Source: an uncultured Gammaproteobacteria bacterium (GTDB lineage: Bacteria; Patescibacteriota; Microgenomatia; JALYQM01). From it: a stretch of DNA of 64,000 nucleotides. The stretch is from contig CAYOFQ010000001.1 of assembly GCA_964403585.1 (NCBI GenBank), forward strand, positions 76,456 through 140,455, read 5' to 3'. How positions within the stretch are numbered: the stretch's first letter is position 1; each line of letters starts with the position of its first letter. Under the pieces are notes generated by a model, which saw only the letters and a program-made list of their open reading frames with translations, had not been told where the DNA came from and ran no database searches. Made by a program: the position numbers and the translations under genes. Positions 3,930-48,161 of this stretch are shown here, piece after piece.

Positions 3930-4097
3930 TCTAGCCTTTTAATATATCCACAAAAAGTTATCCACAATAGAAATTTACATAAAATTTTAAGTTATCCACA
4001 AAGAAGATTTCAGCTATAAATTAACATAAACAACAAAGTTAGAAACGATAAATAATTATAGGTTATGAAAAATATAAGGGGATAACGCACTATAGGA

Positions 4098-4126
4098 TTG
4101 ACAAATATTGACAAATGATATATAAT
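4098..4126 (+). promoter_or_regulatory. Sigma70-type promoter (TTGACA-17-TATAAT)
   Basis: ttgaca at 4098-4103, a 17-nt spacer, and tataat at 4121-4126. It is preceded by ctatagg, which resembles the motif upstream of the 23.5 kb promoter. Confidence 0.5.
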
Positions 4127-4163
4127 ACTTTCGTTAATTCGAATTAGCTCAATTTGAGGCTAT

Positions 4164-4313
4164 ATGATACGTTTAAAGCAGATATTCGCCAGGTTCGGTA
4201 AAGAAGCAACCAGAGGAGCCAAGAGAACACCGGACGCGGTAACACCGTTTATGCATGAACAAATGAAGCGAGTGTTGCAACAGAACTATCAGAGAATTAT
4301 TACAAATAAGTAA
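4164..4313 (+). CDS. Small basic protein, 49 aa (not in the ORF track)
   Basis: ATG at 4164 with GAGG 5-9 nt upstream. Translation is MIRLKQIFARFGKEATRGAKRTPDAVTPFMHEQMKRVLQQNYQRIITNK*. It lies downstream of the 4098 promoter. Confidence 0.3.
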   Translation: MIRLKQIFARFGKEATRGAKRTPDAVTPFMHEQMKRVLQQNYQRIITNK

Positions 4314-4571
4314 GCATAAAAAAAAGCATTACCACCGCTAGAAAAAATATAAGTCCTACGAGTGGCAATGCCTTTATAATTCCAGTAGTTAACCTCCAGG
4401 CAGCGGAGACTAACTAATGTACGTTTACAATAGTATATAGGAAAAATTGCGTCAACCCGATAGGTGCACCCGAAGTATAACCCAAAGATAGCACCCGAAG
4501 CAATTTCATCTACTTATTCGTGGGCTGGATGTCCGAACACGGAGCGTTTTTTCCTGAGCTGGTTTTTATCA

Positions 4572-4633
4572 GTTTATCTCTTTAATCGAGGGCAGGGGTA
4601 GGGCAGGCCTTTGCTCTCGATTAAAGAGATAAA
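4572..4633. repeat. Perfect 18-bp inverted repeat with a 25-nt G-rich loop
   Basis: gtttatctctttaatcgag at 4572-4590 pairs with ctcgattaaagagataaa at 4616-4633. The loop is ggcaggggtagggcaggcctttgct. Confidence 0.6.
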
Positions 4634-4784
4634 AAAAGATTAAGGACGGGCTCTGGGAAAAACGCTTCATCACGTTCATAGTCTGGCCTACGGACAAGTA
4701 GAGGAACCTGTTACTACTTGTATCTCCCATATATAAATCTTACAGCTCAATAGCAGGAAATTCTTATTACAATAGAATCTTCAT

Positions 4785-4813
4785 TTGACGCCTCTCATAC
4801 AAATAGTTATAAT
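4785..4813 (+). promoter_or_regulatory. Sigma70-type promoter for the LPXTG surface protein gene
   Basis: ttgacg at 4785-4790, a 17-nt spacer, and tataat at 4808-4813. Confidence 0.55.
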
Positions 4814-4874
4814 ACTACTATCACATAAAAATATAAGTAGTATAGAAACGAAAAAATGAAAGGGCAGCTGTACT

Positions 4875-7658
4875 ATGCGCATTACTAAACTTCAGAAGTT
4901 AAAGAATGTTCTCCGTAAATCTTCAGTTATTATTTTAACCTTTGGACTACTGCTCTCATCCTATGGAACCTATCTATCTACCGCATCAAATGTGTATGCG
5001 GACTGGTTCGAACCGGACTGTGCACCACCAAACGGTACCGGCACAACTCTAGATCAAATCGTCAGCGCCGGCGCTCGTCGGGTAGGATTTATGGGAACCG
5101 GATACCGGGTTAAAAACTGCAGCCATACCGATAAACAAATTGGTGCAAAAATAATGTGGGGTATCTGTAAGAATCGTACCGAGTCCTGTGCATTAACCAA
5201 CGTTACAACTGTTAATCCGATCACCTTAAAAGCCGGTGAATACTATACCTTCTATGCGCCCGATGTAAACTTTAGTTGCGGTTCGGGAAGAACGGCTGTT
5301 GTTCCGGATGGAATGCAGGCTGAGGGGTTCTACACTATCGCAGACAAAGATTGCCCTGATGACGGGAATAATCCATCGCCTACGCCAACCGCTACCGCCG
5401 CACCAACCGCGACACCAAATAACGATCCCAATATGTGTCAAAGCTTAAATGTATCTTCCGGATCGATCGCCCCGGGTGGATCGGTAACGTTGACAGCTAC
5501 AGCTAACACCAACCAAATCAAGCGATTCACCTATGGCTTCTATAATCTTAATAACCTCTACGGACCAAACAATCCGAAGCCAATCCAATACCAGCAGGGC
5601 GTTAATTATGCAGTCAATCGCGACGTATCTCCATCCAACACTAATTCAATTACTGTAAACTATGCCGATCTTCATCGTGCAGATTATAACGCCGGTGGTG
5701 CAATTCCAACGCGCGTCCAGGTCAACGCCTTCTTCACCAATACTAATAATGTCTTTTCCAGTCCGGCGGCCGGATGCGTTACATATATTAATGTAGTTGC
5801 GCCAACACCTACGGTAGCTCCAACAACGACACCAACCCCCACACCGGTTCCAACCGTCACACCGACTCCAACACCCGTAGCTACTCCTACCTGCGCACCG
5901 GGTATCGATTGCGGCAATGACGGCTCACCAACGCCTACTGCACAACCTTCTCGCACACCATCACCGACTCCAACACCGACAACGCCACCGATTGGCGGAC
6001 CATCAACAACACCGTCACCAACACCGACTGCAGTTCCAACAGCTGTTCCTTCTGCAACGCCGCCGGTATCAATAACGCCGACCCCAACTCCGAGTGTGAT
6101 CCCGACCACAACGCAGTTAAAGTTCTGCAAATACGAAGACGATAACGCCAACGGTTTAATAGATTCCGGAGAAAATATTATTTCCTGGACCTTTAACTAT
6201 TCAATGAATGGTCAGTCAAACTCTGTGGACAGCCACTGGTGGGAATTCTGGAAGCAGGGATGTGCCATTGTTGACGTTCCCACAGGCACCAGCATCACTG
6301 TCAGTGAAGCAGCTAAATCCGGCTGGAGACCAACCGCAATGTACGCTGATGGCGCGCGCATCGACGGTACAACATATAATTACACATCAGATGCAGACAG
6401 CGTCAAAGTTATGTGGTTCCTCAATACCTTCACACCGGACAACACACCTGTTCCAACACCAAGTATCTTGCCAACCACCACACCGAGTACTTCACCAACA
6501 ACTTCGCCAACCCCAACAGTCACACCGTCAGGCAGCCCAACTGCATCACCTACCAGCGGTCCGACCACAACACCGTCGCCAACACCGACCGTTACACCTA
6601 CTGCCACACCAACAGTAACACCAACGGCCTCGCCGACAGCCAGCCCGTCACCAAGCGGTAGTCCGGGAGCAGTGACGCAGCTAAAAGTATGTAAATACAA
6701 CGACGAAAATAACGACGGAGTAGTGAACAACGGCGAAGGAACCATGGGCTGGAATTTTGAATACACCATAGATAACACTACCACCACCATTAGCCGCAGC
6801 GCCTGGGACATGCTGGTTCACCAGGGATGTGTTATCAGCGACGTACCGGCCAATAAATCCGTTCATGTACGCGAGCAGGGTAGAACCGATTGGTCACAAA
6901 CAGCTCTGTATGCCGATGGTGCTCGAGTCGACGGAACTGAATACACCTATACTTCTTCCACCGACGCAATAAAAGTGCTCTGGTTCTTAAATCACAATAC
7001 ACCGGGTACAACCCCATCACCAAGCCCAACAGCTAGTGTAACACCAACGGCCAGCCCGACTGCCAGCCCAACGGCCTCTCCCACAGTAAGCCCGACAGCC
7101 TCACCAACTGCAACTCCAACAGTTGCCAACTCCAACTACAATATAACGATTGAAAAACGGGTCGACGGCACCAGAGTTGATGGCGACCACGTCGGAATTC
7201 AGTATCGGGTAAAGATTAAGAACAACGGAACCAGCCGGGTAGATAGTCTCGAAGTTCGGGACACCTTACCCCCGGACTTTACCTATGATGCCAATACTAC
7301 CGAGGGTAATATCACCACCAATCCGGATATTCAGGATGTCACCGGCGACGATAACCGGCGCTTAGTCTGGCGCAATATCGCCTTAGATGGGGGACAGGAA
7401 ATCAATTTTGGCTATCGCACTACCGGCAAACGAACTGATACAAATTTCTGTAACGATGCTCAGGTTCGCCGCAACGATAACATTATCTCTACCTCACAAG
7501 CCTGTACACGAATCAACCAGGCAGGACAGACAGCCGTCTTAGCCGCAACCACTACCGCCACACTCCCGGCCACCGGCTCCAGCCCTTGGTTATACGGCGG
7601 AATCCTGCTCATGCTCACCGCCGGCTTAGGTTGGAGATTAAGCCGACACGCGGAGTAA
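4875..7658 (+). CDS. LPXTG-anchored cell-surface protein with Pro/Thr-rich linkers, two tandem ~130-aa beta-sandwich-like repeats and a DUF11-like domain
   Basis: N-terminal signal peptide and long PT linkers. Two homologous repeats each start QLK(F/V)CKY(E/N)D(D/E)N.DG. A DUF11-like segment (NYNITIEKRVDGT...) follows. The C-terminus is LPATG, then a hydrophobic stretch, then RLSRHAE, a classic sortase sorting signal. Confidence 0.85.
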   Translation: MRITKLQKLKNVLRKSSVIILTFGLLLSSYGTYLSTASNVYADWFEPDCAPPNGTGTTLDQIVSAGARRVGFMGTGYRVKNCSHTDKQIGAKIMWGICKNRTESCALTNVTTVNPITLKAGEYYTFYAPDVNFSCGSGRTAVVPDGMQAEGFYTIADKDCPDDGNNPSPTPTATAAPTATPNNDPNMCQSLNVSSGSIAPGGSVTLTATANTNQIKRFTYGFYNLNNLYGPNNPKPIQYQQGVNYAVNRDVSPSNTNSITVNYADLHRADYNAGGAIPTRVQVNAFFTNTNNVFSSPAAGCVTYINVVAPTPTVAPTTTPTPTPVPTVTPTPTPVATPTCAPGIDCGNDGSPTPTAQPSRTPSPTPTPTTPPIGGPSTTPSPTPTAVPTAVPSATPPVSITPTPTPSVIPTTTQLKFCKYEDDNANGLIDSGENIISWTFNYSMNGQSNSVDSHWWEFWKQGCAIVDVPTGTSITVSEAAKSGWRPTAMYADGARIDGTTYNYTSDADSVKVMWFLNTFTPDNTPVPTPSILPTTTPSTSPTTSPTPTVTPSGSPTASPTSGPTTTPSPTPTVTPTATPTVTPTASPTASPSPSGSPGAVTQLKVCKYNDENNDGVVNNGEGTMGWNFEYTIDNTTTTISRSAWDMLVHQGCVISDVPANKSVHVREQGRTDWSQTALYADGARVDGTEYTYTSSTDAIKVLWFLNHNTPGTTPSPSPTASVTPTASPTASPTASPTVSPTASPTATPTVANSNYNITIEKRVDGTRVDGDHVGIQYRVKIKNNGTSRVDSLEVRDTLPPDFTYDANTTEGNITTNPDIQDVTGDDNRRLVWRNIALDGGQEINFGYRTTGKRTDTNFCNDAQVRRNDNIISTSQACTRINQAGQTAVLAATTTATLPATGSSPWLYGGILLMLTAGLGWRLSRHAE

Positions 7659-8125: not shown

Positions 8126-9517
8126 ATGTCAGATGACAGCAAAACATACTTCGAACCAATAATCACTCCAGAAGAAGCCGCCGCCCCAACCCCCGAAACA
8201 GACGGCGCAGAAGTGACCCAAACCACAAACAGAAGAAATTATACCCGCCATTCAGATAAATCTGACCGCGGAGCATCATCCCGGGGAACAGGTAGCCGCA
8301 AAAGATACTCCTCCTATTCCAATCAGAACAACAACGACCAGCAGGGGCAAAACCCGCCGGTAGGTAACCAGGCTCAGGCCGGGGATAATTACTATATACC
8401 GGACATGGCCGGCGAGACCTTACCAATTAAAGGTATTTTAGACATTGCCCAGGAAGGTCACGGATATTTACGTCCAAAGTTCTCACCATCGAACCAGGAT
8501 ATTTACATTTCACAATCACAAATCCGCCGCTTTGGCTTACGCCCGGGAGACATGGTCACCGGCATCGCTCGTCCACCTAAAGAACGTGAACGGTATTATG
8601 GACTCCTTGAAGTCAAAGAAGTAAACGAGCGCCCGGTTGAAGAAAACATGGGCCGCCGCACACGGTTTGAAGATTTAACTGCTATTTACCCCAACACCCG
8701 AATCCAACTTGAACACGGCAAATTCCCGTTGTCCTGCCGCATTATCGACCTCACCGCACCAATTGGTAAGGGACAACGCGGTATGATCGTCTCACCGCCA
8801 AAAGCCGGTAAAACTACCATCATGAAGGATATTGCTTCAGGTATTACTGCCAATCATCCCGAAATTCATCTGATCGCCGCACTCATTGGCGAGCGACCTG
8901 AAGAAGTCACCGACATCTCCCGTTCAGTCAAAGGTGAAGTAATCGCCTCTAATTTTGACGAGCCGGCCGAAGACCAGTGCCGGGTCGCTGAAGTCGCTTT
9001 GGATCGCGCCAAGCGCTTAGTTGAAATGGGGAAGGATGTTGTAATTCTCCTTGATTCCATCACCCGCTTAGCCCGCGCCTACAACCTTTCGGTACCACCA
9101 TCAGGGCGTACATTATCCGGAGGTTTTGACCCGGCTGCGTTATATCCGCCCAAGAAATTCTTTGGTGCTGCTCGTAACTGTGAAGAAGGTGGATCTCTCA
9201 CTATCATCGCTACCGCCCTCATAGATACAGGTTCCCGCATGGACGACCTTATCTATGAAGAATTCAAAGGTACCGGTAACATGGAATTACACCTTGATCG
9301 CAAACTCGCCGAACGCCGCATTTACCCTGCCATCGATCCAGAACGCTCAGGCACCCGCCGCGAAGAATTACTCTTCGACGACGAAACCTACAAGGCTATT
9401 GTTACCTTAGGTCGCATGTTATCCATGCTCAACGATTCTGAACGTACCGAAGTATTGGTAGATCGGCTTATCAAGACCAATTCCAACAAGGAATTCCTTG
9501 AAACCATGAAACAATAA
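8126..9517 (+). CDS. rho: Transcription termination factor Rho, with an N-terminal low-complexity insertion
   Basis: Walker A GKGQRGMIVSPPKAGKTT, a Rho RNA-binding (CSD-like) domain, and a Q/N/S-rich N-terminal extension. Confidence 0.95.
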   Translation: MSDDSKTYFEPIITPEEAAAPTPETDGAEVTQTTNRRNYTRHSDKSDRGASSRGTGSRKRYSSYSNQNNNDQQGQNPPVGNQAQAGDNYYIPDMAGETLPIKGILDIAQEGHGYLRPKFSPSNQDIYISQSQIRRFGLRPGDMVTGIARPPKERERYYGLLEVKEVNERPVEENMGRRTRFEDLTAIYPNTRIQLEHGKFPLSCRIIDLTAPIGKGQRGMIVSPPKAGKTTIMKDIASGITANHPEIHLIAALIGERPEEVTDISRSVKGEVIASNFDEPAEDQCRVAEVALDRAKRLVEMGKDVVILLDSITRLARAYNLSVPPSGRTLSGGFDPAALYPPKKFFGAARNCEEGGSLTIIATALIDTGSRMDDLIYEEFKGTGNMELHLDRKLAERRIYPAIDPERSGTRREELLFDDETYKAIVTLGRMLSMLNDSERTEVLVDRLIKTNSNKEFLETMKQ

Positions 9518-19743: not shown

Positions 19744-20037
19744 ATGGTGATTCTACCCGAAATGCTCACATTCGATTGGGATGAAGGAAATAGAGAAAAA
19801 AACCAAATAAGTCATGGAATAATGTGGATAGACGCAGAGGAAGTATTCTTTAATAGACCACTAATGATTCATTCTGACGAGGGCCATTCAAAAGTTGAAG
19901 CACGTTACCAGGCACTTGGAAGGACCAATAAAGATCGAAAAGTATTTGTTGTATTTACAATAAGAAAAAACAAAATACGAATAATTTCTATCCGAGACAT
20001 GAATAAAAAAGAAAAGGCGGCCTATGAACAAAATTAA
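19744..20037 (+). CDS. brnT: BrnT-family type II toxin (DUF497 RNase)
   Basis: The stretch FDWDEGNREKNQ.HGI...EEVF...HSKVEARYQALGRT...VFVVFTIRKNKIRIISIRDMNKKE fits the BrnT pattern. The gene overlaps the antitoxin by 14 nt. Confidence 0.8.
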   Translation: MVILPEMLTFDWDEGNREKNQISHGIMWIDAEEVFFNRPLMIHSDEGHSKVEARYQALGRTNKDRKVFVVFTIRKNKIRIISIRDMNKKEKAAYEQN

Positions 20038-20344
20038 AAAGATACCAGCATTCAAATCAGAAGATGAAGAGCGAAAATTCTGGGATACACACGATTCTAC
20101 CGAATATGTGGACTGGAGCCGGGCTGAAGAAACAGTGTTCCCGAATCTACAGCCATCCACCCAAACCATATCTCTCCGACTACCCGAATCATTACTTGCA
20201 CGCATCAAAAACGAGGCAAATAAAAAAGATATTCCATACCAATCCTTAATGAAAATATATTTGAGTAAGGCCGTCGAAGAAGATCAAAGCTTACCACTTG
20301 CATCATACGGTATAATAAGAGACAAGGCGAAAAAGGGCCGCTAG
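20024..20344 (+). CDS. brnA: BrnA-family antitoxin (CopG/RHH-like)
   Basis: KFWDTHDSTEYVDW...ISLRLPESLLARIKNEANKKDIPYQSLMKIYL is the typical BrnA C-terminal RHH. Confidence 0.8.
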   Translation: MNKIKKIPAFKSEDEERKFWDTHDSTEYVDWSRAEETVFPNLQPSTQTISLRLPESLLARIKNEANKKDIPYQSLMKIYLSKAVEEDQSLPLASYGIIRDKAKKGR

Positions 20345-20407
20345 CTCATTTGGTAGAGCGCCTCCATGGCATGGAGGAGGTGAGGGGTTCGAGCCCCCTG
20401 CGGTCCA
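20335..20407 (+). tRNA. tRNA-Ala (anticodon GGC)
   Basis: A cloverleaf with acceptor stem gggccgc/gcggtcc includes the G3:U70 Ala identity pair. D arm gctc...gagc. Anticodon stem cctcc/ggagg with loop atGGCat. T arm agggg-ttcgagc-cccct. Discriminator A; CCA is not encoded. The 5' end overlaps the brnA stop codon. Confidence 0.85.
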
Positions 20408-22940: not shown

Positions 22941-23237
22941 CTAGGTAAGTTGGAAGTAAGCCTGTATTGCACCTAATCCCAAATTCAGTACCAGAAACGC
23001 GAGGAATGACAAGGCGGTGGCGAGAATGAAAACGATGACCTTTAGCGGCCACCGGATAATCCATGTTAACCTTGGCCCTCCGGTCGCTTTGGCAGCCCGA
23101 TATCCGGCATACAGTGACGCCATGAATTCAAGCAGCCAAATCAGAAACCACGGGTCCCGCAGATTCGGTGCGTGTATCACACCATTTCTCCTTGTCCTCA
23201 CTCCGACCCCGATACTTATGCATGTATGTAAATGCAC
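22941..23237 (-). CDS. Putative small membrane protein (start uncertain)
   Basis: A minus-strand ORF of intermediate GC with two hydrophobic segments (WFLIWLLEF; IVFILATALSFLAFLVLNLGLGAI). The real start may be the internal Met (MASLYAGY...). Confidence 0.3.
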   Translation of the reverse strand: MHLHTCISIGVGVRTRRNGVIHAPNLRDPWFLIWLLEFMASLYAGYRAAKATGGPRLTWIIRWPLKVIVFILATALSFLAFLVLNLGLGAIQAYFQLT

Positions 23238-23520
23238 AAATATCAGAGTCTGAAAAAGAACAACACGAACATTTTAAAGATCGGATAAATAAGGAATAGT
23301 ATAAACAATTATACCATCAATAATTAAACAAAATTATATATTTTAAAAAGGAGATTTGGACAACAAGAGAGACAACAGCAAGGCAGTATACCAGAAAAGC
23401 AGAGAATATTCAACCTATAGTAACAGAAGAATAACAATATGGATAGAATAATTAAGAATTCTAGAAGGATTAAATAAGCTTAAATTTATAGATATTTCAA
23501 AAAATAAATAACCTATAGTA

Positions 23521-23549
23521 TTGACAAATAAGACAAAATATGGTATAGT
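23521..23549 (+). promoter_or_regulatory. Sigma70-type promoter with extended -10 (island unit 1)
   Basis: ttgaca at 23521-23526, a 17-nt spacer ending in tgg, and tatagt at 23544-23549. It is preceded by aaataacctatagtatt. Confidence 0.55.
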
Positions 23550-23952
23550 AGGCCCACTCTCCAACTCATTTTGAGCTCATTAACATCACAGTAGGGAGTC
23601 TACTGATCGGGAAAAGGTCACAAAATGAGGTTAAAATTAGCGCTCTGCGTTAGCTTTTGACACCATTCCAGCCCTTTATCGCGGTTAGTTTCTCCCTGCT
23701 AATACTCACAATTATGTGAGAGACAAATATGAATACCTTTGCCAACTTTATCTGGATGCAGACAAAGTGAGCTTGGACGGTTACTATTGTTGTTCTAATC
23801 ATTTAGAACCCTCTAAAGTTATCGCCTGAGCTCAACTTGTCTGCATTCAGAATGTAAGAAGGGGATGGTGTTTCGAACACCCGTATGCAGAATCCCTATC
23901 CGCCGCCCTCAACCGTTGTTGTTCAAACCGCTAAGTTGAAAGGAAACCGACA

Positions 23953-25011
23953 ATGGCACGCCAAATCATCATCGAGCTCTGGAATGGGACGAAAATCAAG
24001 CTGGAGCCAAAGGGCGATTTGAAGATGGAGGTGCAGTTTCCCTCGCCGATGTACCAATTGCTCCGGCCACTGGCCGAGATCACGATCATCGACGAGATCG
24101 ATCTGACCCCGCCCGTCACGCCCGAGAAGCCCGCGCCGACCCCCACCGCGACCAACACGCCGGACGAGACCGACACCGCGCTTCGCCGAAACTCGCGGCT
24201 GCAGGCCATTGCGACCCACGCCATCGGCGTGCTGGTCGGCTTGATCATCGGCCTGTTGCTCGCCGGTTTCATCTACCGCGACCACATCCACCCCGAGACC
24301 TTCCTGCAGCATGTGCATATGGAGCAGTGGCTTGCCACTCGCTACAGCGCCACGCTGCATGCCGTTTCGGACAAGCAGGTCGAGGTCGACAACGCCAACA
24401 TCCGCGCCGGCGCTCTCGAGACCGACAAGTTGTGGCTGCAGCAGCAGCTCGACGCCGAGCAGACCGCCAACATGAAGCTGATCGACGCGCTCACTATCGC
24501 TGCCGCCGGCACGGGCAACACCTACAACACCTACAACAACCTGCCCGGCTACCAGCAGCAGTATGACCCCACCAGCGGCCAGCTGACCTACAACGGGCCG
24601 AACAACGACTCGTTGCGTATTCTTGGTGACATGCTGGACTCGCTGAACCTCAACGGCAATGGCGCCAACTCCCAGAACTCGGCCGCGGCCATCAACAACT
24701 CGATCTGGCTGGGGAGCTACGACAGTGGTGCCTGGAACTACGCCGGCATTGGCGAGATCCGCGTGCTGAGCACACCCGCCAACGGCGCGCCCGGCTATTT
24801 CACCTACGAGTTGCCCGTCGCCAGCGACAGCCAGGCGGTTCACTATCTCAACCCTAACGCGCTCCGCGACGCGCAGACCAACCAGCCCGTCACGGTGCCC
24901 GGCCGCTACAAGGTCGTCAACCGCAGCCTCTACACCGGCGCGGCCACTGATGGCGAAGCCACGCAATTGGACAACGTCAGCCAGCTGTGGCTCGAGTACA
25001 TCGGCCAGTAG
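23953..25011 (+). CDS. GC-rich island ORF a: bitopic membrane protein with PT-rich linker and Q/N/G-rich C-terminal domain
   Basis: ATG with AAGGAAA 8 nt upstream. Third codon positions are strongly G/C-biased, which fits + strand coding. One TM (AIGVLVGLIIGLLLAGFIY). The long minus-strand ORF 23923-25164 is the usual GC-rich antisense artefact. Confidence 0.6.
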   Translation: MARQIIIELWNGTKIKLEPKGDLKMEVQFPSPMYQLLRPLAEITIIDEIDLTPPVTPEKPAPTPTATNTPDETDTALRRNSRLQAIATHAIGVLVGLIIGLLLAGFIYRDHIHPETFLQHVHMEQWLATRYSATLHAVSDKQVEVDNANIRAGALETDKLWLQQQLDAEQTANMKLIDALTIAAAGTGNTYNTYNNLPGYQQQYDPTSGQLTYNGPNNDSLRILGDMLDSLNLNGNGANSQNSAAAINNSIWLGSYDSGAWNYAGIGEIRVLSTPANGAPGYFTYELPVASDSQAVHYLNPNALRDAQTNQPVTVPGRYKVVNRSLYTGAATDGEATQLDNVSQLWLEYIGQ

Positions 25012-25253
25012 GCCTTTCTTTTTTCTCTCACAACGCCATGCCTTAGTGCATGTCGCCGCCTGTGCCTTAGGGTACGGCGTTGTGAGTTTGACATATACCG
25101 TCGAGCAGAGAGAATTTGGCCGACGGGGGTCAGAGGAGTGCCGAAGGCACGAAGCGGTGCGCATGCATCATTTCGTTCACCTACAGCACTCCTCGTCAAC
25201 CACCCCCGCCGGCCTTTTCTCGTTTTAAAGGTAAAAATTAATATCCTATAATA

Positions 25254-25282
25254 TTGCCAAATAGTACAAAAAGTGATACAAT
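25254..25282 (+). promoter_or_regulatory. Sigma70-type promoter (island unit 2)
   Basis: ttgcca at 25254-25259, a 17-nt spacer, and tacaat at 25277-25282. It is preceded by atcctataatatt. Confidence 0.5.
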
Positions 25283-25606
25283 TCCCCCGCAAACGCGTCA
25301 ACGATCCAAGTTCCTTAAAATCGGGTAGTGGAGAAGCGTGAGGATTGGATTCTTCGGCTAAAGTCCGTGCTTAAGCATGGATAGAATCTGAAACAATCGA
25401 ATCTCTCTAAATTCTCTACTACCGCCAATAGTAATTTCCAATCCTGACTTCCATTATCCCTATCAGAAGATACAGATAGTTATTTATAGATATCTTTTGA
25501 TACGGATAATGGAATACAAAGGAAAACTAATGAAACAAGCTCAGGCACCGTAGACGGCCGTTTGTTTAGATCGCTGAAACTGAAAGAAAGCAAAGGAGAA
25601 ACAACT

Positions 25607-26365
25607 GTGAATGATCCAACTCCAATCGAGCAGGCCCGACAACTAATCGGCGAACAACGCTACGACGAGGCACTGCAAATCCTGCGTGAACTAACCGAGG
25701 CCGAGCCTACCAACGTGGAGGCCTGGCTGCTTTCGGCTCAAGTTCTCGCCGAACCATCGACGAAGAAGTACTGCTACAAGAAAGTGCTCGAGATCGACCC
25801 GACCAACGAGACCGCGCTCAAAGGCCTGCAGGCCCTGCCTCCGGACGAAGCCGAGGTCGTATTCGATGGCCAACCGGCCCTTGATTCAAGAGGCCGCGTC
25901 CCCGGCCGTGTTGGTGAGACTGATCAGGTTCTGAGCGATGTGTACGCCGATGCTGGTGTCGCCACAGGGCAAGGTGCTCCAAGGCGCCGTCGGCTTCGCT
26001 GGCTTATCCCAGCAGTTCTTGTGCTGCTCCTGCTAGTAGTTCTGGCGCTCGCCCTTGGCAGCCGCTCCGGCACACCGCCTGCAGCGTCACCTACGCCACC
26101 ACCCGCCACCGCCCAGCCGCAGGCAACCGCGCCCGCACAACCGACCGCCGCGACCGAATCGACGGCTGCACCAGAGCCGACGGCCCCGCCGCCGACCAAC
26201 GCACCGCAGCCTACCGCTGTGCCGACTTCCGCCCCGACCACCGCGCCGACTAGCCCGCCACCCACCGCCGCGCCCACAAACTCCGGCGCCCTGCGCCCGG
26301 GCGACACGGTCATTTCGACCGCGACGCCAGCTACCAGGCCAGGCGTTCTGCGCCCCGGCGGCTAG
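25607..26365 (+). CDS. GC-rich island ORF b: TPR-like N-domain, TM helix, Pro/Ala/Thr-rich region ending in LRPG repeats
   Basis: The probable start is GTG at 25607, with AAAGGAG 7 nt upstream; the ORF track extends it to 25562. One TM (WLIPAVLVLLLLVVLALALG). The C-terminus is ...GALRPGDTVISTATPATRPGVLRPGG*. Confidence 0.55.
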   Translation: MNDPTPIEQARQLIGEQRYDEALQILRELTEAEPTNVEAWLLSAQVLAEPSTKKYCYKKVLEIDPTNETALKGLQALPPDEAEVVFDGQPALDSRGRVPGRVGETDQVLSDVYADAGVATGQGAPRRRRLRWLIPAVLVLLLLVVLALALGSRSGTPPAASPTPPPATAQPQATAPAQPTAATESTAAPEPTAPPPTNAPQPTAVPTSAPTTAPTSPPPTAAPTNSGALRPGDTVISTATPATRPGVLRPGG

Positions 26366-26593
26366 CGCTTCGGACACTCATGGTGTGATCACACCATCTG
26401 CCAGGAGTGGTTTTGGATCCTCCAAGATAAACCCGGTGTGGGGTTTGTCTTTAGTGGAAATTACTACGAACCGTACGCCTCTATGGCGGCATCATCAGCA
26501 AGCACGCCTTCAGCAATGAGGGAAAGTGAGTGTAAAAGATGTAGGTTCAGGCGGTAGTAGTTTTCAGTAAATAACCTATAATATTTATTTAAA

Positions 26594-26621
26594 GGTTGAT
26601 AATTACTTAAAATCTGGTATA
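26594..26621 (+). promoter_or_regulatory. Sigma70-type promoter with extended -10 (island unit 3)
   Basis: ttgata at 26594-26599, a 16-nt spacer ending in tgg, and tataat at 26616-26621. It is preceded by aaataacctataatatt. Confidence 0.5.
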
Positions 26622-27094
26622 ATTGCAGGGCAATATTTAGTCCTATAGTACTGTTACTACAAATGTGAATATGAACTATTCGTATTCAGACTTGTACTAA
26701 TAAGTACGGCACTTTAAAAACTGCATAGACAGTAGTGGGAAACGATGGGGATTGGACACGACCTCAGTCAACCATGCATAATTGTGTGCATTCGCGCCTG
26801 ATGAAACGGTCAAGTCTCCGTGTTTTTCCCACTACCCTTAATTGAAAAAGAAGTTCTTCCAAATAAACTATCCAATAATCCTATGAGGTGTTAAGCATAA
26901 ATTTAGCACTTGATAGGATTATTGTGATAGCAAAGCAAGGAGGATTATCTGATCACCTGCACGAGCCGCAAGGCGACGATGCAGAAAGCGGAGAGAGACC
27001 GCCCGAAGAACTGTGAGCGCAAGCTTACAGAGATGGTGGAAACCCATCACGAAACATACGTCGATCATCAGTTGTACAACTAGGAGAAGTAACA

Positions 27095-28171
27095 GTGAAA
27101 CGCTTACCAAACCTGCGGTACCTTTTGAGCATCGCGATGCTCGTGCTGGCCGCCCTCGCCGCCGCCCCGGCCGCCGCCGCGCCCGCCACCTGTGCCAAAC
27201 CGATCAACGGCAAGGGCGAAATTCACGGCAAGACCTATCAGTCGGACTGCATCAACGACACCACCGACCCGTTCGACCTAGCGGTCAGCGGCAATTTCGG
27301 CAAGGCCGATACTGTGTTGCTCCAGCTCCGCTCACCAAGCCAGCTGAGCTTCCAGCTCGACCCCAAAGACCCGGCAGCCATTGCCGTAGTGCCGAACGCC
27401 TGGTCGGATCCCATCATGTGGGACAAGTCGTATAACGACCACGCCATCCGCATCCTGCCGTACGGCGCCGTCGAGATTTCGGCGACGTCGACGCTGGCTC
27501 TGTGGTACATCACCCGCCAACCCGCTCAGGTCGTCGCACAGCCGACACCCACCAACACCGCCGGCCAGCTCGTGGCCCAGTCGCAGGTAGAGAACCAAAC
27601 CATCGATATCGCCGACGCGACCGCGCTGGCGAAGATCAAGCTGCACGATGGAGATGAGCTGGAGTGGAGCTTCGCAAAGTCGGCTACGCCGATCACGCTG
27701 ACGCTCTCGTCGGACAAGCCCTCGTACCCATTCTCGCTGATCCACGCCTCGAGCGGCACCGCCCAGTTTCAGTCGAAGATCTGGAGCAAGTCGAAAGGCC
27801 ACGAGATTCGCACGCAGGTGCCATCTGACCACGGCACTTTGAACAGCGGCCCTGCTGTGATCTCGATTTCCGTGGAGGCACCCGCCGGCACCACCGACCA
27901 GCTGAATCTGAAGATCACCCGCGCCGCGCAGCCCGCTACCTCCGCTGGCTCGAACGCCACGGTGCCAAACGGCGACTTGCCAAACACCGGCTGGGCCGAC
28001 TTGGGCGGCTTGATGCAGCTCGGCGACTCCGCTACCAACCAGACCACCGGCATGAACGCTTTCATCACCTTCCCCCTCAGCGCTACCCAGCGCTGGGTCG
28101 TCGGTGGCCTCGCCGCCTTGCTCGCCATCGGCCTCTTGGCCCGCCGCCGGCGCGCCTCCAAGGCACGCTAG
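27095..28171 (+). CDS. GC-rich island ORF c: secreted surface protein with LPNTG motif and C-terminal TM plus Arg-rich tail
   Basis: GTG start with AGGAG 8 nt upstream. Signal peptide. The C-terminal region has DLPNTG, then about 38 aa, then the hydrophobic stretch VVGGLAALLAIGLLA and RRRRASKAR. This is a sortase-signal-like layout with an atypically long gap. Confidence 0.6.
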   Translation: MKRLPNLRYLLSIAMLVLAALAAAPAAAAPATCAKPINGKGEIHGKTYQSDCINDTTDPFDLAVSGNFGKADTVLLQLRSPSQLSFQLDPKDPAAIAVVPNAWSDPIMWDKSYNDHAIRILPYGAVEISATSTLALWYITRQPAQVVAQPTPTNTAGQLVAQSQVENQTIDIADATALAKIKLHDGDELEWSFAKSATPITLTLSSDKPSYPFSLIHASSGTAQFQSKIWSKSKGHEIRTQVPSDHGTLNSGPAVISISVEAPAGTTDQLNLKITRAAQPATSAGSNATVPNGDLPNTGWADLGGLMQLGDSATNQTTGMNAFITFPLSATQRWVVGGLAALLAIGLLARRRRASKAR

Positions 28172-28185
28172 CACATCGGCCCTTC

Positions 28186-28260
28186 GGGGGAGAGCGCGCA
28201 TCATGCGCCGCGCGCTCTCCTCTCGGAGAACAGGACTTTCTTTTTCTATTTTTGTTTTTG
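28186..28260 (+). terminator. Strong GC-rich rho-independent terminator closing the GC-rich block
   Basis: ggagagcgcgc...gcgcgctctcc hairpin followed by a T-rich run (ctttctttttctatttttgtttttg). Confidence 0.6.
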
Positions 28261-28386
28261 TCTCGCTTCGCCTAGCCGGTGAAGAAATTGCCAGTGATGG
28301 TGATGTGAGATGAAGATAAAGAAAGAAAAGGGTAGTGGGTTCTGTTGAAAATCGGAGTAATGTACTCGGGTTTTGAATAGAATCTT

Positions 28387-40169: not shown

Positions 40170-41456
40170 ATGAGCGTTACACTCCGACACACGCTGCTCA
40201 GTCTCTGTGTTCTGGCATTCTTAATAGTAAGATATTATCAGACTATTCCTGCTGAAATCCCGCAACCGACTTCAATTCACGCCGGTGGTCAGATAGTCGG
40301 GCTCCCATATTCTAAAAATACCAGTCAGTTTCTTGAGCTAAAGGTAACGTCTAGTTCAGCAAGCAGTATCCGGGTCGGTGAGCACATAAAACTTGTTACT
40401 GCTACGTATCCGCAATATCAGTATGGAGACATTCTCAATGTCGAGGGCATCTTTAACGAACGGCGAACACTGATATACCCCAAGATACATAAAATAGATT
40501 ACCGTCCTAATTTCTTCTTAAATCTGTTATTCAAATTTAGACATCGTTTCGAAAAGTCTCTTCAATCATACTTGCCCCGCGATGACGCCGCCTTAGCCCA
40601 GGGCATGGTCCTTGGTACCAACCAGGAGTTCTCTGAGGAAATTGAAGCGGCTTTCAAGCGTACCGGTACTATGCACATGATCGTTGTCTCGGGCTTTAAT
40701 ATCACTCTGGTCGCGGGAAGTATCTTACGTCTAGCCGGATTGCTTCACCGCCGCATAGTCATCATCCTTGCAATTGTAGGGAGCTCCGTCTTCGTGTTAC
40801 TTACCGGTGCCCAGCCACCGGCTGTCAGAGCCGGCATCATGGCTGTAATTTTACTTATCGGGCAATTTACCGGGCGACCTGCGCATGCCGTACGCGTGTT
40901 AACTGTCACAATCATCATCATGCTTGCCATACATCCGCAGTTGGTCAATTCGGTTTCCTTTCAGCTTTCCTCGCTTGCCACCATAGGATTACTCTGTATA
41001 GCTCAACCGCTAAGTAAAAAACTAAAGCAGCCTAAATCTTCTGTACTGCGCTATCTACAGGGCGAGCTCGTTGTCACACTCTCCGCTCAGGTAATGGTTG
41101 CGCCGGTACTGATGCATACCTTTGCATCAGTATCACTCATCTCTCCGCCTGCTAATCTGGCAGTGTCCTGGCTAATACCCTACATCATGGTATCAGCATT
41201 GATCCTCTGTCTGGCAGACATGGTAATCCCAATGATAGCCCACGTAATTGCCTTTGAGCTCGGGTCAATTACCGCATTTTTCCTGCAGATAATCAGTATT
41301 TTTTCCGAAGTACCGGGAGGGGATATAAACAATATCAAAATCAACTCTGCGATTATTATAGGTATCTACAGTATTCTAGTCTATTTGATAATAAAAATAT
41401 CCGATCAAAAAATATATTCAAAAGAAGGAGAAAGTGAAGAGGAGGAAAATGAATAA
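40170..41456 (+). CDS. comEC: ComEC/Rec2 competence channel, N-terminal OB + membrane domain
   Basis: The competence domain is GMVLGTNQEFSEEIEAAFKRTGTMHMIVVSGFNITLV, followed by many TM helices. Confidence 0.75.
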   Translation: MSVTLRHTLLSLCVLAFLIVRYYQTIPAEIPQPTSIHAGGQIVGLPYSKNTSQFLELKVTSSSASSIRVGEHIKLVTATYPQYQYGDILNVEGIFNERRTLIYPKIHKIDYRPNFFLNLLFKFRHRFEKSLQSYLPRDDAALAQGMVLGTNQEFSEEIEAAFKRTGTMHMIVVSGFNITLVAGSILRLAGLLHRRIVIILAIVGSSVFVLLTGAQPPAVRAGIMAVILLIGQFTGRPAHAVRVLTVTIIIMLAIHPQLVNSVSFQLSSLATIGLLCIAQPLSKKLKQPKSSVLRYLQGELVVTLSAQVMVAPVLMHTFASVSLISPPANLAVSWLIPYIMVSALILCLADMVIPMIAHVIAFELGSITAFFLQIISIFSEVPGGDINNIKINSAIIIGIYSILVYLIIKISDQKIYSKEGESEEEENE

Positions 41457-42351: not shown

Positions 42352-42394
42352 TCATTGACAATAACCCGCAATCAATGCTATAAATAAACCAATA

Positions 42395-42660
42395 TCTGCC
42401 TGCCATACGAATAGGTATAAAGCCGTGAGTTGGTTAGAAACAACCCACAAGTAAGAGTCGCGCCTTACTGGCTGAGCGCCAAATACGCTACGGAAATATT
42501 CGATCCGTATAAAACGAAGCATCGCCTACGCGGTCACGAGTGCCCTGATGGGAATACTATTAGGGAATCAAGGTGGTACCACGAGTAACTCCCATCCTGT
42601 CAGGAAGAGATCTCGTCCTTGGAAATAACTTTTGTTGTTTTCAATGACGGGATTTTTTAG
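42395..42660 (+). promoter_or_regulatory. T-box leader upstream of argS
   Basis: The conserved T-box sequence aatcaaggtggtaccacg sits at 42566-42583. The leader follows a promoter (ttgaca at 42354, 18-nt spacer, tataaa). Confidence 0.6.
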
Positions 42661-42674
42661 TAAGGTGGTTATAT

Positions 42675-44585
42675 ATGGTAAAGACAGTTATTCAAAAAAA
42701 TCTGGCCGATGCGGTCAAAGAGGTATGGGAAATTGAACTCATCCCAAACGATATCAACGTTGATTTTCCTTCGGCAGAAGGGTTTGGCGACTACACCACT
42801 AATTGCGCTATGGTCATGGTAAAGCTCTTGCCTAAAGAATCCAAGCAACCACCACTTGAAATTGCTAAAAAATTGGCGGAAAAATTAATAGAAAAAGACA
42901 ATCGTCAGATATTCAGCAAGATAGAAGCTGTTGCTCCGGGATTTATAAATCTTACATTGTCGCTATCATATTTGCACAACTATATTCATACACCCGTAGC
43001 AGCCCATCTGGACGTGCTGAAACAAACCTATCATGATGATCGGAAAGTATTGATCGAGTACGTTGGACCCAATACCAATAAGCCCCTGCATATCGGGCAC
43101 TTACGCAACGCTAGTCTCGGGCTGGCTCTTTTGAACCTTAACAAGGCCAGTGGCAAGAATGTTGTTGCCGCCAACATTAACAACGATCGGGGAATCCATA
43201 TTATTAAATCCATGTACGGGTACCTTATGTACGGAAAGAAAGATCAGAACCGTCCACTGGAGGCGTTTAAAGATTACCGTGAAGCACTGAGTGAATGGAA
43301 GGAACATCCTGAACACTGGCAAACGCCGGCTGAGCAGGAACTGAAGCCTGATCATTTTGTCGGATATTATTACATTCTTGGCAATACCGACTATGAGATT
43401 GCTGAAAAACAAGTTGAAGAAAGCCAACTGGATAACCCGCAGGCTGCCCATAACCAGATGCAGAATATGCTCGAGGCATGGGAGAATGACGATACGGATA
43501 TCCGGGCACTCTGGAAGCAAAACAATGACTGGTTCTATGAGGGCATGCACGAGACCTTACGAACCTTTAATATCTATTCACCGTCCGATCCTACCAAGTT
43601 CTTTGATATTGAATGGTATGAGAGTCAGATTTACAAAAACGGTAAAGACGCGATTTTGGAAAAAATCGGCAACGGAGTTATTACTGAATGCGAAGACGGA
43701 CATGTTGAAGCCGTACTCGAAAAATATAACCTTCCCAACATCGTTTTACTGAGAAAGAACAAAACATCTCTATATATAGTACAAGATATCGAAATGTTAC
43801 GCCAACGACTCAAAGAGTATCACATGGATCGGGTGCTCTATTTAACAGCCGCGGAACAGAATCTGCGCTTTCAGCAATTGTTTGCCATTTGCGAATCACT
43901 CGGCTTTGGAAAATTGGAACAGATGGCCCACTTAGGCTACGGCATGGTTCGAACGCCGGAAGGGAAGATGTCGTCCCGCAAAGGCACAGTAATCTTGGCT
44001 GACGAATTAATTGCCGAAGTTGAAGAAAAAGCCATCGAAAAAATAAACAGCGAGCATGCCGATTATACACAAGAAGATAAGGAAAAAATTAGCAGACAAG
44101 TGGCTATAGCTGCTATTAAGTACGGTATTCTTAAATACAATGCACTCAGTAATATTATCTTTGATAGCGAGTCAAGCATCGCTTTTGAAGGGGACACCGG
44201 TCCGTATCTGCAATATACCTATGCTCGCACAGCCTCAATCCGAAGAAAATTTAAAGAAAAATTCCCGGGAGTTGAAATCTCTCCGGAGCATATTAATCAG
44301 GTTACTCTCGACCAGCTTGCTCCCGAAGAGCTTGACCTTATGAAATATCTCTTCCGTTTTCCGGAAACCATAGCCAAAGCTGCTCATACCGCCAGCCCAA
44401 ACTATATCTGTGAATATTTATTCAATCTCTGCCAGAAGTTCAATTTTTTCTACACTACCAAGCCAATAATGAACGAAAAAAACACCAGCACTCGAGATTT
44501 CCGATTGCAAATTACACTCAAAACATCTGAGACATTAAAAACAGGGCTGGCACTAATAGGCATAGAAGCACCGGAAAAAATGTAA
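42675..44585 (+). CDS. argS: Arginine--tRNA ligase
   Basis: HIGH motif PNTNKPLHIGHLRNA and a class I ArgRS anticodon-binding C-terminus. Confidence 0.95.
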   Translation: MVKTVIQKNLADAVKEVWEIELIPNDINVDFPSAEGFGDYTTNCAMVMVKLLPKESKQPPLEIAKKLAEKLIEKDNRQIFSKIEAVAPGFINLTLSLSYLHNYIHTPVAAHLDVLKQTYHDDRKVLIEYVGPNTNKPLHIGHLRNASLGLALLNLNKASGKNVVAANINNDRGIHIIKSMYGYLMYGKKDQNRPLEAFKDYREALSEWKEHPEHWQTPAEQELKPDHFVGYYYILGNTDYEIAEKQVEESQLDNPQAAHNQMQNMLEAWENDDTDIRALWKQNNDWFYEGMHETLRTFNIYSPSDPTKFFDIEWYESQIYKNGKDAILEKIGNGVITECEDGHVEAVLEKYNLPNIVLLRKNKTSLYIVQDIEMLRQRLKEYHMDRVLYLTAAEQNLRFQQLFAICESLGFGKLEQMAHLGYGMVRTPEGKMSSRKGTVILADELIAEVEEKAIEKINSEHADYTQEDKEKISRQVAIAAIKYGILKYNALSNIIFDSESSIAFEGDTGPYLQYTYARTASIRRKFKEKFPGVEISPEHINQVTLDQLAPEELDLMKYLFRFPETIAKAAHTASPNYICEYLFNLCQKFNFFYTTKPIMNEKNTSTRDFRLQITLKTSETLKTGLALIGIEAPEKM

Positions 44586-46906: not shown

Positions 46907-47506
46907 ATGTCCAATGTGCTCAAAGAACGTACTCTTATTGTCATAAAACCTGATGCTGTCAAACGTGCCCTGACAGGCACAATTATTAAGAAGTTTGAAG
47001 ACGTCGGATTGAAGCTGGTCGCCTGCAAAATGATCGTAGCCTCAAAGGAACAAGTTGAAGGGCACTATCCGATCAAAGATCCCAACTGGGTACGCATGCT
47101 CGGCGAAAAAACCTTAAAAACTTTTTCCGATCTGAAACTTGATGTAAAATCCAAATTAGGCACCGATGACCCAATGGAACTGGGACACGACGTTGTTAAC
47201 AAGCTGGTTCAGCATTGGTCCGAAGGACCGGTCATTGTTATGATCTGGGAAGGTCCACACGCCATTGAAGTTGCCCGTAAACTGCGGGGTGTCACGACAC
47301 CATTACAAGCCGAACCCGGATCCATTCTGGGTGATCTTTCTTTTGATTCACAACTGATCTCAAATACGTTAGGCAGAGCCATGAAGACGTTTGTCCATGC
47401 CTCCGGCGAAACCAGTGAAGCAGATCGGGAGATTAAGCACTGGTTTGGTGAAGAGGCCACGCTCTACGACTATTACAACCGCACCGATCACTCTGCCATG
47501 TTATAA
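46907..47506 (+). CDS. ndk: Nucleoside diphosphate kinase-like protein 1
   Basis: NDK fold with LIVIKPDAV and the active-site His in TFVHASGE. It is extended relative to the canonical form. Confidence 0.75.
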   Translation: MSNVLKERTLIVIKPDAVKRALTGTIIKKFEDVGLKLVACKMIVASKEQVEGHYPIKDPNWVRMLGEKTLKTFSDLKLDVKSKLGTDDPMELGHDVVNKLVQHWSEGPVIVMIWEGPHAIEVARKLRGVTTPLQAEPGSILGDLSFDSQLISNTLGRAMKTFVHASGETSEADREIKHWFGEEATLYDYYNRTDHSAML

Positions 47507-47537
47507 ACATATTTTACTAAAGAAAGGCCTCCAGGCT

Positions 47538-48161
47538 ATGGAAAAACCGCAAAAAGAAAAAACCTTAATTGTTATCAAGCACGACGGAGTAGCTCGTGGA
47601 ATCATTGGCGAAATTATCCATCGCTATGAAAAAGCCGGCTTAAAAGTTGTCGCCATGAAGATGTTGCACCCTACCAAGGAAATGGCCGATAAACACTACC
47701 AGGCAACCCCGGAAGACCTTGAGAGAATGGGCAATAATACCCTCCGTGATGCCGCCGAAAAAGGCGTCGATGTCAAAATCAAATTCGGTACAGATAATGC
47801 TCAGGAGATTGGCAAGTTTATCAAGAAGTGGTTAATCGACTATCTAAACGAAGGTCCGGTGATCGCTTTTGTACTGGAAGGATATAATGCAATTAAAATT
47901 GGCCGAAAAATAACCGGGGCAACACTTCCTTCTGAAGCACTCCCGGGAACTATCCGTGGTGATTTAACTCACGACAATCCTGAATTGGCCAACTTCTATG
48001 ACCGCCCGATGCGCAATTTGGTACACGCTTCAGGTAAGCCAAGCGAAGCTGAATTTGAAATCAACTTATGGTTCTCTTCCGACGAAGTCTTTTCTTATGA
48101 TCGTGTTGATGAAGAGGCCATGTTCGGTCCAATCAAACCTGTCCAGCCCAAGCAAAATTAA
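47538..48161 (+). CDS. Nucleoside diphosphate kinase-like protein 2 (tandem paralog)
   Basis: Start at the ATG at 47538 (MEKPQKEKTLIVIKHDGV...). Active-site His in NLVHASGK. The ORF-track start at 47391 would overlap the upstream gene. Confidence 0.75.
   Translation: MEKPQKEKTLIVIKHDGVARGIIGEIIHRYEKAGLKVVAMKMLHPTKEMADKHYQATPEDLERMGNNTLRDAAEKGVDVKIKFGTDNAQEIGKFIKKWLIDYLNEGPVIAFVLEGYNAIKIGRKITGATLPSEALPGTIRGDLTHDNPELANFYDRPMRNLVHASGKPSEAEFEINLWFSSDEVFSYDRVDEEAMFGPIKPVQPKQN

Follow-up and report, generated by a model that had tools for sequence, protein, structure and literature searches.

In the 64-kb window (the whole stretch of 64,000 nt analysed here, from contig CAYOFQ010000001.1), three GC-rich open reading frames (ORF1-3) are each preceded by a predicted promoter and a long 5' leader, and these arrangements are referred to as units 1, 2 and 3. 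Every leader carries two long hairpins, hpA and hpB, on the plus strand, on which all features lie unless stated otherwise. Fold z-scores, strand specificity and the conservation of base pairs between units 2 and 3 bear out the proposal of a first-pass annotation, made from the letters alone, that the predicted 5' leaders hold a selected, sense-strand RNA structure. We read the paired hairpins as a processing or stabiliser module in the 5' untranslated region (5' UTR) of envelope-protein mRNAs, with a probability of about 0.45; the transcription starts, the cleavage and the effect on mRNA stability or translation are what we infer. A structured leader is well supported and is of a familiar general kind, not a new riboswitch.

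The first-pass annotation had described short complementary arms in each leader. The arms of unit 1 (23590-23598 with 23692-23700, 9 bp including one G-U) and of unit 2 (25324-25335 with 25412-25423, 12 bp including one G-U) were confirmed, and in unit 3 the 5' arm was shifted by one nucleotide, from 26733-26743 to 26732-26742, where it forms 11 perfect pairs with 26825-26835. These arms are the basal 9-12 pairs of imperfect hairpins of 100-111 nt (hpA, 36-43 bp), with minimum free energies (MFE) of -42 to -48 kcal/mol and z-scores, relative to dinucleotide shuffles, of -7.3, -6.6 and -4.2 for units 1, 2 and 3, respectively. The hpA hairpins were among the strongest of ~12,800 sliding 120-nt windows in the 64-kb window. 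Their individual properties were as follows: unit 1 hpA (23590-23700) spans 111 nt with 43 bp, 6 of them G-U, and an MFE of -47.8 kcal/mol on the plus strand versus -26.0 on the minus strand; unit 2 hpA (25324-25423) spans 100 nt with 36 bp, 4 of them G-U (-45.5 versus -30.0); and unit 3 hpA (26732-26835) spans 104 nt with 37 bp, also with 4 G-U (-42.3 versus -36.2).

Each hpA is followed by a second, near-perfect hairpin (hpB, 22-38 bp, 50-100 nt) formed by an inverted repeat. Unit 1 hpB (23751-23851, 101 nt, 38 bp) had an MFE of -49.1 kcal/mol on the plus strand versus -42.4 on the minus strand, and a z-score of -4.9 in the window scan. In unit 2, hpB (25449-25514, 26 bp) sits with an outer helix in 25435-25525, and in unit 3, hpB (26873-26924, 22 bp) and its outer helix occupy 26856-26944 (-25.9 versus -15.2 kcal/mol). 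An extra hairpin of 60 nt (26648-26707), present in unit 3 only, lies between the promoter and hpA.

All six hairpins folded far better than shuffled sequences, and all six folded better on the plus strand, by 21.8, 15.5 and 6.1 kcal/mol (hpA of units 1-3) and by 6.7, 0.6 and 10.7 kcal/mol (hpB of units 1-3). Together they contain 23 G-U pairs and a single A.C 1x1 mismatch. A palindrome in the DNA would be symmetric in both respects, so the sense-strand advantage and the G-U asymmetry indicate an RNA structure; the DNA-palindrome reading was ruled out on this asymmetry. The constraint acts on the sense transcript.

The covariation that the first-pass annotation had drawn across three units was recovered between units 2 and 3 only. 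The leaders of these two units are homologous throughout (Smith-Waterman z-scores of 6.4 for hpA, 3.0 for hpB and 6.4 for the whole leader), and the block described as common to them, GTAGTGG..GAA.CG.TG.GGATTGGA, is real. Unit 1 was not alignable (z-scores of -1.5 and 1.0), and the supposed family of three is better described as two paralogues (units 2 and 3) and a unit 1 that resembles them in architecture. In a structure-blind MAFFT alignment of hpA from units 2 and 3, 24/24 consensus pairs were kept, with double changes at four pairs (two of them A-U/G-C changes in the stem formed by the arms described above, the other two further up) and single-sided changes through G-U at five. For hpB, 19/19 pairs were kept, with six double changes. 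Slid controls were 38-50% paired for hpA and 34-50% overall for hpA and hpB. The shuffle controls (40/500, ~1/16, for hpA; 8/500, ~1/64) are at the ceiling for two sequences, and true compensatory change is demonstrable only between these two. When neutral divergence was simulated to the observed difference of 35-42%, the fold energy of the partner was retained in 0/500 descendants, for either hairpin and in either direction. In the paralogous units 2 and 3, selection has maintained the folds of both hpA and hpB.

Between units 2 and 3, the apical thirds of hpA could not be aligned, and each copy folds into an apical stem of its own. The hairpins of unit 1, compared with those of units 2 and 3, gave z-scores between -1.5 and 1.0, apart from a weakly similar stretch of 24 nt that extends into the 5' arm (z=3.0). 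Because unit 1 cannot be aligned, the earlier remark that its arms differ yet stay complementary merely restates its own hairpin. For the search for more copies that had been suggested, the hpA sequences of units 2 and 3 were turned into a covariance model: with filters off, it recovered only these two copies over the 64 kb (unit 3 at 120.8 bits) and added none from elsewhere in the window, and unit 1 went undetected even at E<=10. The model also matched the reverse strands of its own two copies weakly (39 and 24 bits). No other long hairpin in the window resembles hpA or hpB in sequence.

The hairpins lie downstream of the three best sigma-70-type matches that the promoter scan gave in the region. 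The unit 1 promoter (23505-23549) matches 11/12 consensus positions and consists of the box CCTATAGTA (23512-23520), the -35 hexamer TTGACA (23521-23526), a 17-nt spacer and a TG-extended -10 hexamer TATAGT (23544-23549). The unit 2 promoter (25238-25282) has the box CCTATAATA (25245-25253), TTGCCA (25254-25259), a 17-nt spacer and TG-extended TACAAT (25277-25282). In unit 3 (26568-26650), the box (26575-26583) is followed by TTGATA (26596-26601), a 16-nt spacer and TG-extended TATAAT (26618-26623), and a second copy of the box (26642-26650) heads a degenerate copy of the promoter. The promoters were homologous by Smith-Waterman alignment (z=8.5 for unit 1 against unit 2; z=5.0 for unit 1 against unit 3), and the same scan showed no other promoter for ORF1-3.

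The box, CCTATARTA, occurs seven times in the window, where 0.93 copies would be expected, and usually abuts the -35 hexamer. Five of the seven copies are inside this island; the copies start at 23414, 23512, 25245, 26575, 26642 and 50375 on the plus strand and at 41354 on the minus strand, and a related box is found at 4090-4110. It may serve these promoters in common as an UP-like element or as the binding site of a regulator. The predicted leaders are 330-470 nt long and untranslated, and hpA begins 34, 35 and 102 nt past the predicted transcription starts of units 1, 2 and 3, respectively; in unit 3 the degenerate second promoter copy and the extra 60-nt hairpin are interposed.

Directly after hpB, all three units carry a purine-rich tract resembling a Shine-Dalgarno (SD) sequence, 85-150 nt upstream of the true start: AAGAAGGGG in unit 1 (23856-23864), AAAGGAAAA in unit 2 (~25519-25527) and AAGGAGG in unit 3 (26937-26943). 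A pyrimidine tract just before hpB is conserved in units 2 and 3, and the two tracts are predicted to pair in an outer helix (p ~0.8 in both units), in which UUUCC (25435-25439) pairs with the SD-like GGAAA (25521-25525) in unit 2 and CUUCC pairs with the SD-like GGAGG (26939-26943) in unit 3. In these two units, hpB is thus the top of a longer helix that hides the SD-like sequence. The main SD and start codons, 85-170 nt downstream, showed no predicted pairing with hpA or hpB.

Possible short upstream ORFs were found between hpB and the main ORF at 23865-23939 (24 codons), 25530-25553 (7 codons) and 26949/26979-27083 (34-44 codons), and those of units 1 and 3 terminate 11-13 nt short of the main start, beside its SD. 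The proximal, GC-rich part of the ORF3 leader (26988-27048) forms three small hairpins, at 26988-27002, 27011-27030 and 27032-27048.

The ORF3 region could be compared with a relative. An exhaustive HMMER search returned only two remote ORF3 homologues among 1.84e9 representative proteins, one on a 1.4-kb Logan contig (L008, gene at 111-1220; reads ERR8482628) and the second on JGI contigs (P0005; metagenomes 3300071358 and 3300071325). L008 covers 110 nt upstream of its gene and ends before the hpA/hpB region. Like ORF3, its gene is GC-rich, with a GC content at third codon positions (GC3) of 0.85, and has AT-rich flanks. The proteins are 38% identical and the coding sequences 53% identical, and the non-coding flanks are 75-78% identical (window positions 26986-27054 and 28175-28356 against L008 positions 1-80 and 1225-1405), with ~78% for the proximal leader. 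In this alignment, conservation is thus higher in the ORF3 flanks than in the gene that they frame. Since the orthologue retains a GC3 of 0.85 despite 38% amino acid identity, the GC3 bias is maintained and does not reflect recent transfer. These two features, flanks conserved better than genes and an extreme GC3 that is maintained, are the most unusual aspects of the locus and go beyond what the first-pass annotation had claimed.

All three proximal-leader hairpins are kept in L008, with pairs preserved through G-U changes and one A-U to U-A swap in an alignment read by eye. The reading of the unit 3 upstream ORF as a leader peptide was rejected: its frame is broken in L008, where the hairpins persist, and judging from the two sequences this ORF is probably not translated as such.

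Downstream of ORF3, a structured intergenic domain (28183-28356) precedes a gene for a 1001-amino-acid (aa) protein and consists of a GC-rich stem (28188-28221) and a long hairpin (28229-28346, ~118 nt) with a pyrimidine arm and a purine arm, the window copy of which includes 15 G-U pairs. The domain had a fold z-score of -4.9 in the window scan. All 58/58 of its pairs form in both the window and L008, with six double and nine single compensatory changes, versus 46-52% pairing in slid controls. As no promoter precedes the 1001-aa gene, it may be co-transcribed with ORF3.

The elements match no described RNA family, as had been expected: no Rfam match reached the gathering threshold anywhere in the window, and a search of the region at E<=10 gave only microRNA (miRNA) and small nucleolar RNA hairpin models, far below their thresholds. 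The suggestion of a riboswitch did not hold, since the hairpins belong to no Rfam class and are single and unbranched, with neither a multi-helix junction nor an expression platform. Attenuation fared no better: no hairpin is followed by a U-tract, the terminator scan found no terminator in the leaders and no alternative terminator/antiterminator fold was evident. No conserved junction or loop nucleotides were seen in hpA or hpB, whose conserved blocks lie in the stems. The unbranched hairpins, the lack of a U-run and the unsequestered main SD together rule out the usual riboswitch and attenuator architectures. Riboswitch and T-box leaders are likewise long, structured 5' regions ahead of a gene, whereas the leaders described here are unbranched and have no conserved junction, expression platform or Rfam match.

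Elsewhere in the window, a divergent T-box leader (42371-42602) was observed upstream of the ArgRS gene (42675-44585); it contains the GGUGGUACC box and matches full-length RF00230. Its score of 23.9 bits (E=0.0017 in a 361-nt search) is below the gathering score of 93, and it was therefore missed by the gathering-threshold scan.

The alternative of a known insertion sequence or miniature inverted-repeat transposable element (MITE), which the first-pass annotation had named, was checked: the hairpins match no described element and are not a dispersed repeat within the 64-kb window. A blastn search of the 5.2-kb region against phage and plasmid collections gave no match, and a pattern scan of 185,579 genomes, among which the source genome is not included, gave five matches, about the number expected by chance, none of which folds. 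The sequences flanking hpA are not direct repeats (..AATCG| and |GCCAA.. in unit 2; ..AGACA| and |CCTTA.. in unit 3).

Two further candidates were set aside. Integron attC sites have R''/L''...L'/R' cores (RYYYAAC ... GTTRRRY) and close off, on the 3' side, promoterless cassettes that adjoin an integrase. An attC identity was rejected: the hairpins end in GGTAGTGG...CTACTACC, they are placed between a promoter and the ORF that follows it, and the window proteins that were scanned include no integrase. A defence-system reading was also rejected.

In the processing or stabiliser reading, each GC-rich envelope gene would be transcribed from its own strong, predicted sigma-70-type promoter, and the AT-rich first part of the leader would constitute the module: the promoter box, an imperfect hpA of ~100 nt, a near-perfect hpB of 50-100 nt and then the SD-like tract. 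The module would act post-transcriptionally, on the mRNA. Its long double-stranded hairpins would be recognised during processing, with RNase III as the most plausible enzyme, or would protect the transcript, or both. Acting with the SD-like tract, the hairpins would fix where the mRNA begins and how long it survives, and hence its output. Once freed, the tract after hpB may become a ribosome-binding 5' stabiliser, and the structured 3' domain could protect or separate the downstream cistron. The stems are 22-43 bp long (at least ~20 bp of double strand), sense-strand specific and downstream of predicted promoters. Stems of this length are long enough for RNase III-type enzymes.

Several points weigh against this interpretation. 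The start sites are predicted from sequence only, and hpA begins at some distance from them, whereas a simple protective stem-loop would be expected at the very 5' end. With the SD-like tract predicted to be paired in units 2 and 3, ribosomes could bind it only after processing or melting. Evidence of selection on hpA and hpB comes from a single paralogous pair and, as unit 1 is unalignable, a function common to the three units is argued from architecture alone. Furthermore, just 64 kb of the genome is open to view for an RNase III gene.

Known systems offer partial parallels. The 5'-UTR stem-loop of slpA in Lactobacillus is a stabiliser of the mRNA of an abundant surface protein (PMC10221546). 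Stabilisers of the slpA/ompA type share with the units described here a long untranslated leader, a stable stem-loop, an envelope-protein gene and a strong promoter, along with a proposed effect on mRNA half-life and ribosome access. They differ in that each leader here has two much longer hairpins (22-43 bp), the first of them 34-102 nt past the predicted start; there is no sequence relation, and abundance of the proteins is only assumed here. A second parallel is the cry3Aa leader, which is processed upstream of an SD-like tract. That tract, in Bacillus thuringiensis, is the STAB-SD (Agaisse & Lereclus 1996, as cited in PMC8309801, ref. 16). As in the present units, the SD-like purine tract is well upstream of the real start codon, within a long 5' UTR; unlike cry3Aa, the tract here is predicted to be paired (units 2 and 3) and may be followed by short ORFs (units 1 and 2), and both processing and 30S binding are proposed. 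Correia elements (CREE) of Neisseria measure ~100-150 bp, have inverted ends and can provide promoters; RNase III binds or cleaves them (PMC2649163). These elements and the RNase III sites of phage T7 early mRNA have in common with hpA and hpB multi-turn, imperfect double-stranded hairpins in leaders or between cistrons. In contrast to Correia elements, the hairpins here form no dispersed repeat in the window, show no target-site duplication and no sequence similarity, and their cleavage is proposed.

Other explanations were weighed against the processing or stabiliser reading. It is unlikely that the leaders are signal-responsive cis-regulators (a riboswitch, an RNA thermometer or a protein-binding leader) in which hpA, or hpB with its outer helix, switches conformation. 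Such a role would suit long leaders with structures conserved by selection, the predicted pairing, in units 2 and 3, of the SD-like tract downstream of hpB, the block GGAUUGGA conserved in hpA of these units and the short upstream ORFs after the tract in units 1 and 2. It is opposed by the absence of any Rfam match above noise, by elements that are each a single unbranched hairpin without conserved junction or loop nucleotides, and by apical parts that are not conserved even between paralogues; moreover, no terminator follows any hairpin, neither hpA nor hpB sequesters the main SD and start codon, and the unit 3 upstream ORF is not conserved in L008. We consider it rather more doubtful that the structures are passive insulators, which would only shield untranslated RNA from Rho-dependent termination or from an endonuclease and would have no specific partner. 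A Rho gene does lie in the window (8126-9517), the leaders are untranslated over 330-470 nt, other long leaders of the window carry unrelated long hairpins (e.g. 4551-4660), and the hairpins of unit 1 occupy the same positions as those of units 2 and 3 with unrelated sequences. However, shielding leaves unexplained both the sequence blocks kept, besides pairing, between units 2 and 3 and the flank identity of 75-78% between organisms, and unstructured spacers persist between the hairpins.

There is little to favour independent small RNAs, either driven by these promoters or excised as trans-acting hairpins, with a merely incidental position upstream of the ORFs: the strong promoters directly upstream, the high stability of the hairpins and the fact that the sole Rfam matches are weak, hairpin-shaped miRNA-precursor models are set against the lack of a terminator between the hairpins and the ORFs, ORFs that have no other promoter, and hairpins without an accessible, conserved single-stranded seed. 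We give as little credence to the view that the hairpins have no function of their own and are by-products of duplication and palindrome-generating mutation, e.g. template switching. DNA-level processes can maintain palindromes and only one paralogous pair attests to selection, but such an origin does not agree with the sense-strand G-U bias of 23 to 1, with the neutral simulation (fold kept in 0/500 descendants) or with flanking structures that are conserved between organisms with compensatory changes. Least probable of all is that hpA is palindromic mobile DNA of the MITE, Correia or ERIC (enterobacterial repetitive intergenic consensus) kind, landed or co-opted in the leaders. Its length of ~100 nt, its 11-12-bp terminal inverted repeats, the existence of two related copies and the weak reverse-strand model matches (39 and 24 bits) would fit, as would the promoters and RNase III binding of Correia elements (PMC2649163). 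Nevertheless, the 64-kb window holds no further copy on either strand and no other long hairpin similar to it; the two copies share their orientation and their place in a larger duplicated promoter-hpA-hpB module, have no flanking direct repeats, and are ~42% diverged, with compensatory change and a strong G-U strand asymmetry. Phage and plasmid collections gave no match, and the matches in the 185,579-genome pattern scan were by chance and did not fold.

A wider view of the locus, which is possible but distinctly unlikely, is that the flanking non-coding DNA, AT-rich and heavily structured (promoter box, hpA, hpB, proximal hairpins and ~170-nt 3' domain), makes up a lineage-specific "expression socket" that is more strongly conserved than the faster-evolving, GC3-rich envelope genes within it. 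If this were true, the socket would be an undescribed class of cis-acting RNA module that dictates the processing, stability or regulated translation of variable surface-protein mRNAs, and might also provide homology arms for gene swapping by recombination in a naturally competent, small-genome bacterium. As for the processing or stabiliser module, if it controls mRNA fate, it would represent a compact natural promoter-plus-leader cassette for envelope proteins in a deeply branching, almost unstudied lineage, and a handle on the better-conserved flanks and on the contrast between a GC3 of ~0.85 and one of ~0.45 in other genes.

The products of ORF1-3 are membrane or secreted, i.e. envelope or surface, proteins. 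ORF1 (23953-25011; GC 0.63, GC3 0.88) encodes a 352-aa membrane protein with a transmembrane (TM) segment; ORF2 (25607-26365; GC 0.66, GC3 0.66), with a GTG start, encodes 252 aa with TPR repeats, a TM segment and a Pro/Thr/Ala-rich tail; and ORF3 (27095-28171; GC3 0.84) encodes 358 aa with a signal peptide, two beta-sandwich domains, LPNTG and a C-terminal TM anchor. Their GC content is 0.63-0.66, and the GC3 of all 32 other window genes is 0.35-0.53. In the ORF3 family (including proteins P0004 and P0005), an LPxT[GA] motif located ~55-65 residues from the C-terminus is followed by a TM helix and a basic tail; together they make up a sortase-like sorting signal whose spacer is unusually long. 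The AlphaFold model of ORF3 shows the two beta-sandwich domains (predicted local distance difference test score, pLDDT, of 59), and a Foldseek search with it returned only generic beta-sandwich matches (TM-score <0.2) and no informative PDB match.

Homologues of these proteins were scarce. Word-based searches with ORF3, ORF1 and a 797-aa neighbour returned only the query proteins, and ORF1, an orphan in that search, had only a weak DUF4407 match. A tblastn search of ORF1 against phage and plasmid collections gave no match, nor did metagenome scans with the ORF3 family alignment and P0005, or viral scans. Donor homologues of the GC-rich ORFs were not found in these searches, and most lineage-specific proteins of the window had no homologue among 5.8e9 sequences.

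The window comes from a bacterial chromosome, has ~43% GC and carries nearly all its genes on the plus strand; the same sequence is also present in the Logan assemblies of SRR16481186/7 and on a 1,573,555-bp NCBI contig. The genes identified encode RadA, Rho, Tgt, FmrO, Obg, LeuRS, ComEA, ComEC, ArgRS and trigger factor, together with a 2957-aa protein with helix-turn-helix (HTH), GT2 and Kelch domains. ORF1-3 are located between a tRNA gene and the 1001-aa orphan. A BrnT/BrnA-type toxin-antitoxin pair and the tRNA gene (19744-20407) directly precede the 797-aa orphan gene and the GC-rich island, which is a typical genomic-island setting.

Other structured regions were noted in the window. On the minus strand, a divergent promoter (23413-23385) and a long hairpin (~23186-23269) precede a small membrane-protein ORF, and this arrangement (22941-23413) is possibly a fourth unit of like architecture. 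Two long GC-rich hairpins follow ORF1 (25027-25086 and 25105-25228), neither with a U-tract; the second, of ~115 nt, folds strongly on both strands. At 4090-4875, a similar strong promoter (CTATAGGATTGACAAATA...TATAAT) and a leader of ~745 nt precede the gene for a 927-aa DUF11 surface protein; this leader contains a small ORF and the strongest hairpin of the window (4551-4660, a perfect 27-bp stem), which is unrelated in sequence to hpA and hpB.

Two overlapping ORFs (46907-47506 and 47391-48161) both match nucleoside diphosphate kinase and may reflect a frameshift or a tandem gene. The giant 2957-aa HTH/GT2/Kelch-repeat protein is encoded at 50719-59592, preceded by a very AT-rich region of 466 nt, and a second ORF with a similar HTH and GT2 beginning starts at 59957 and runs past the window end at 64000.

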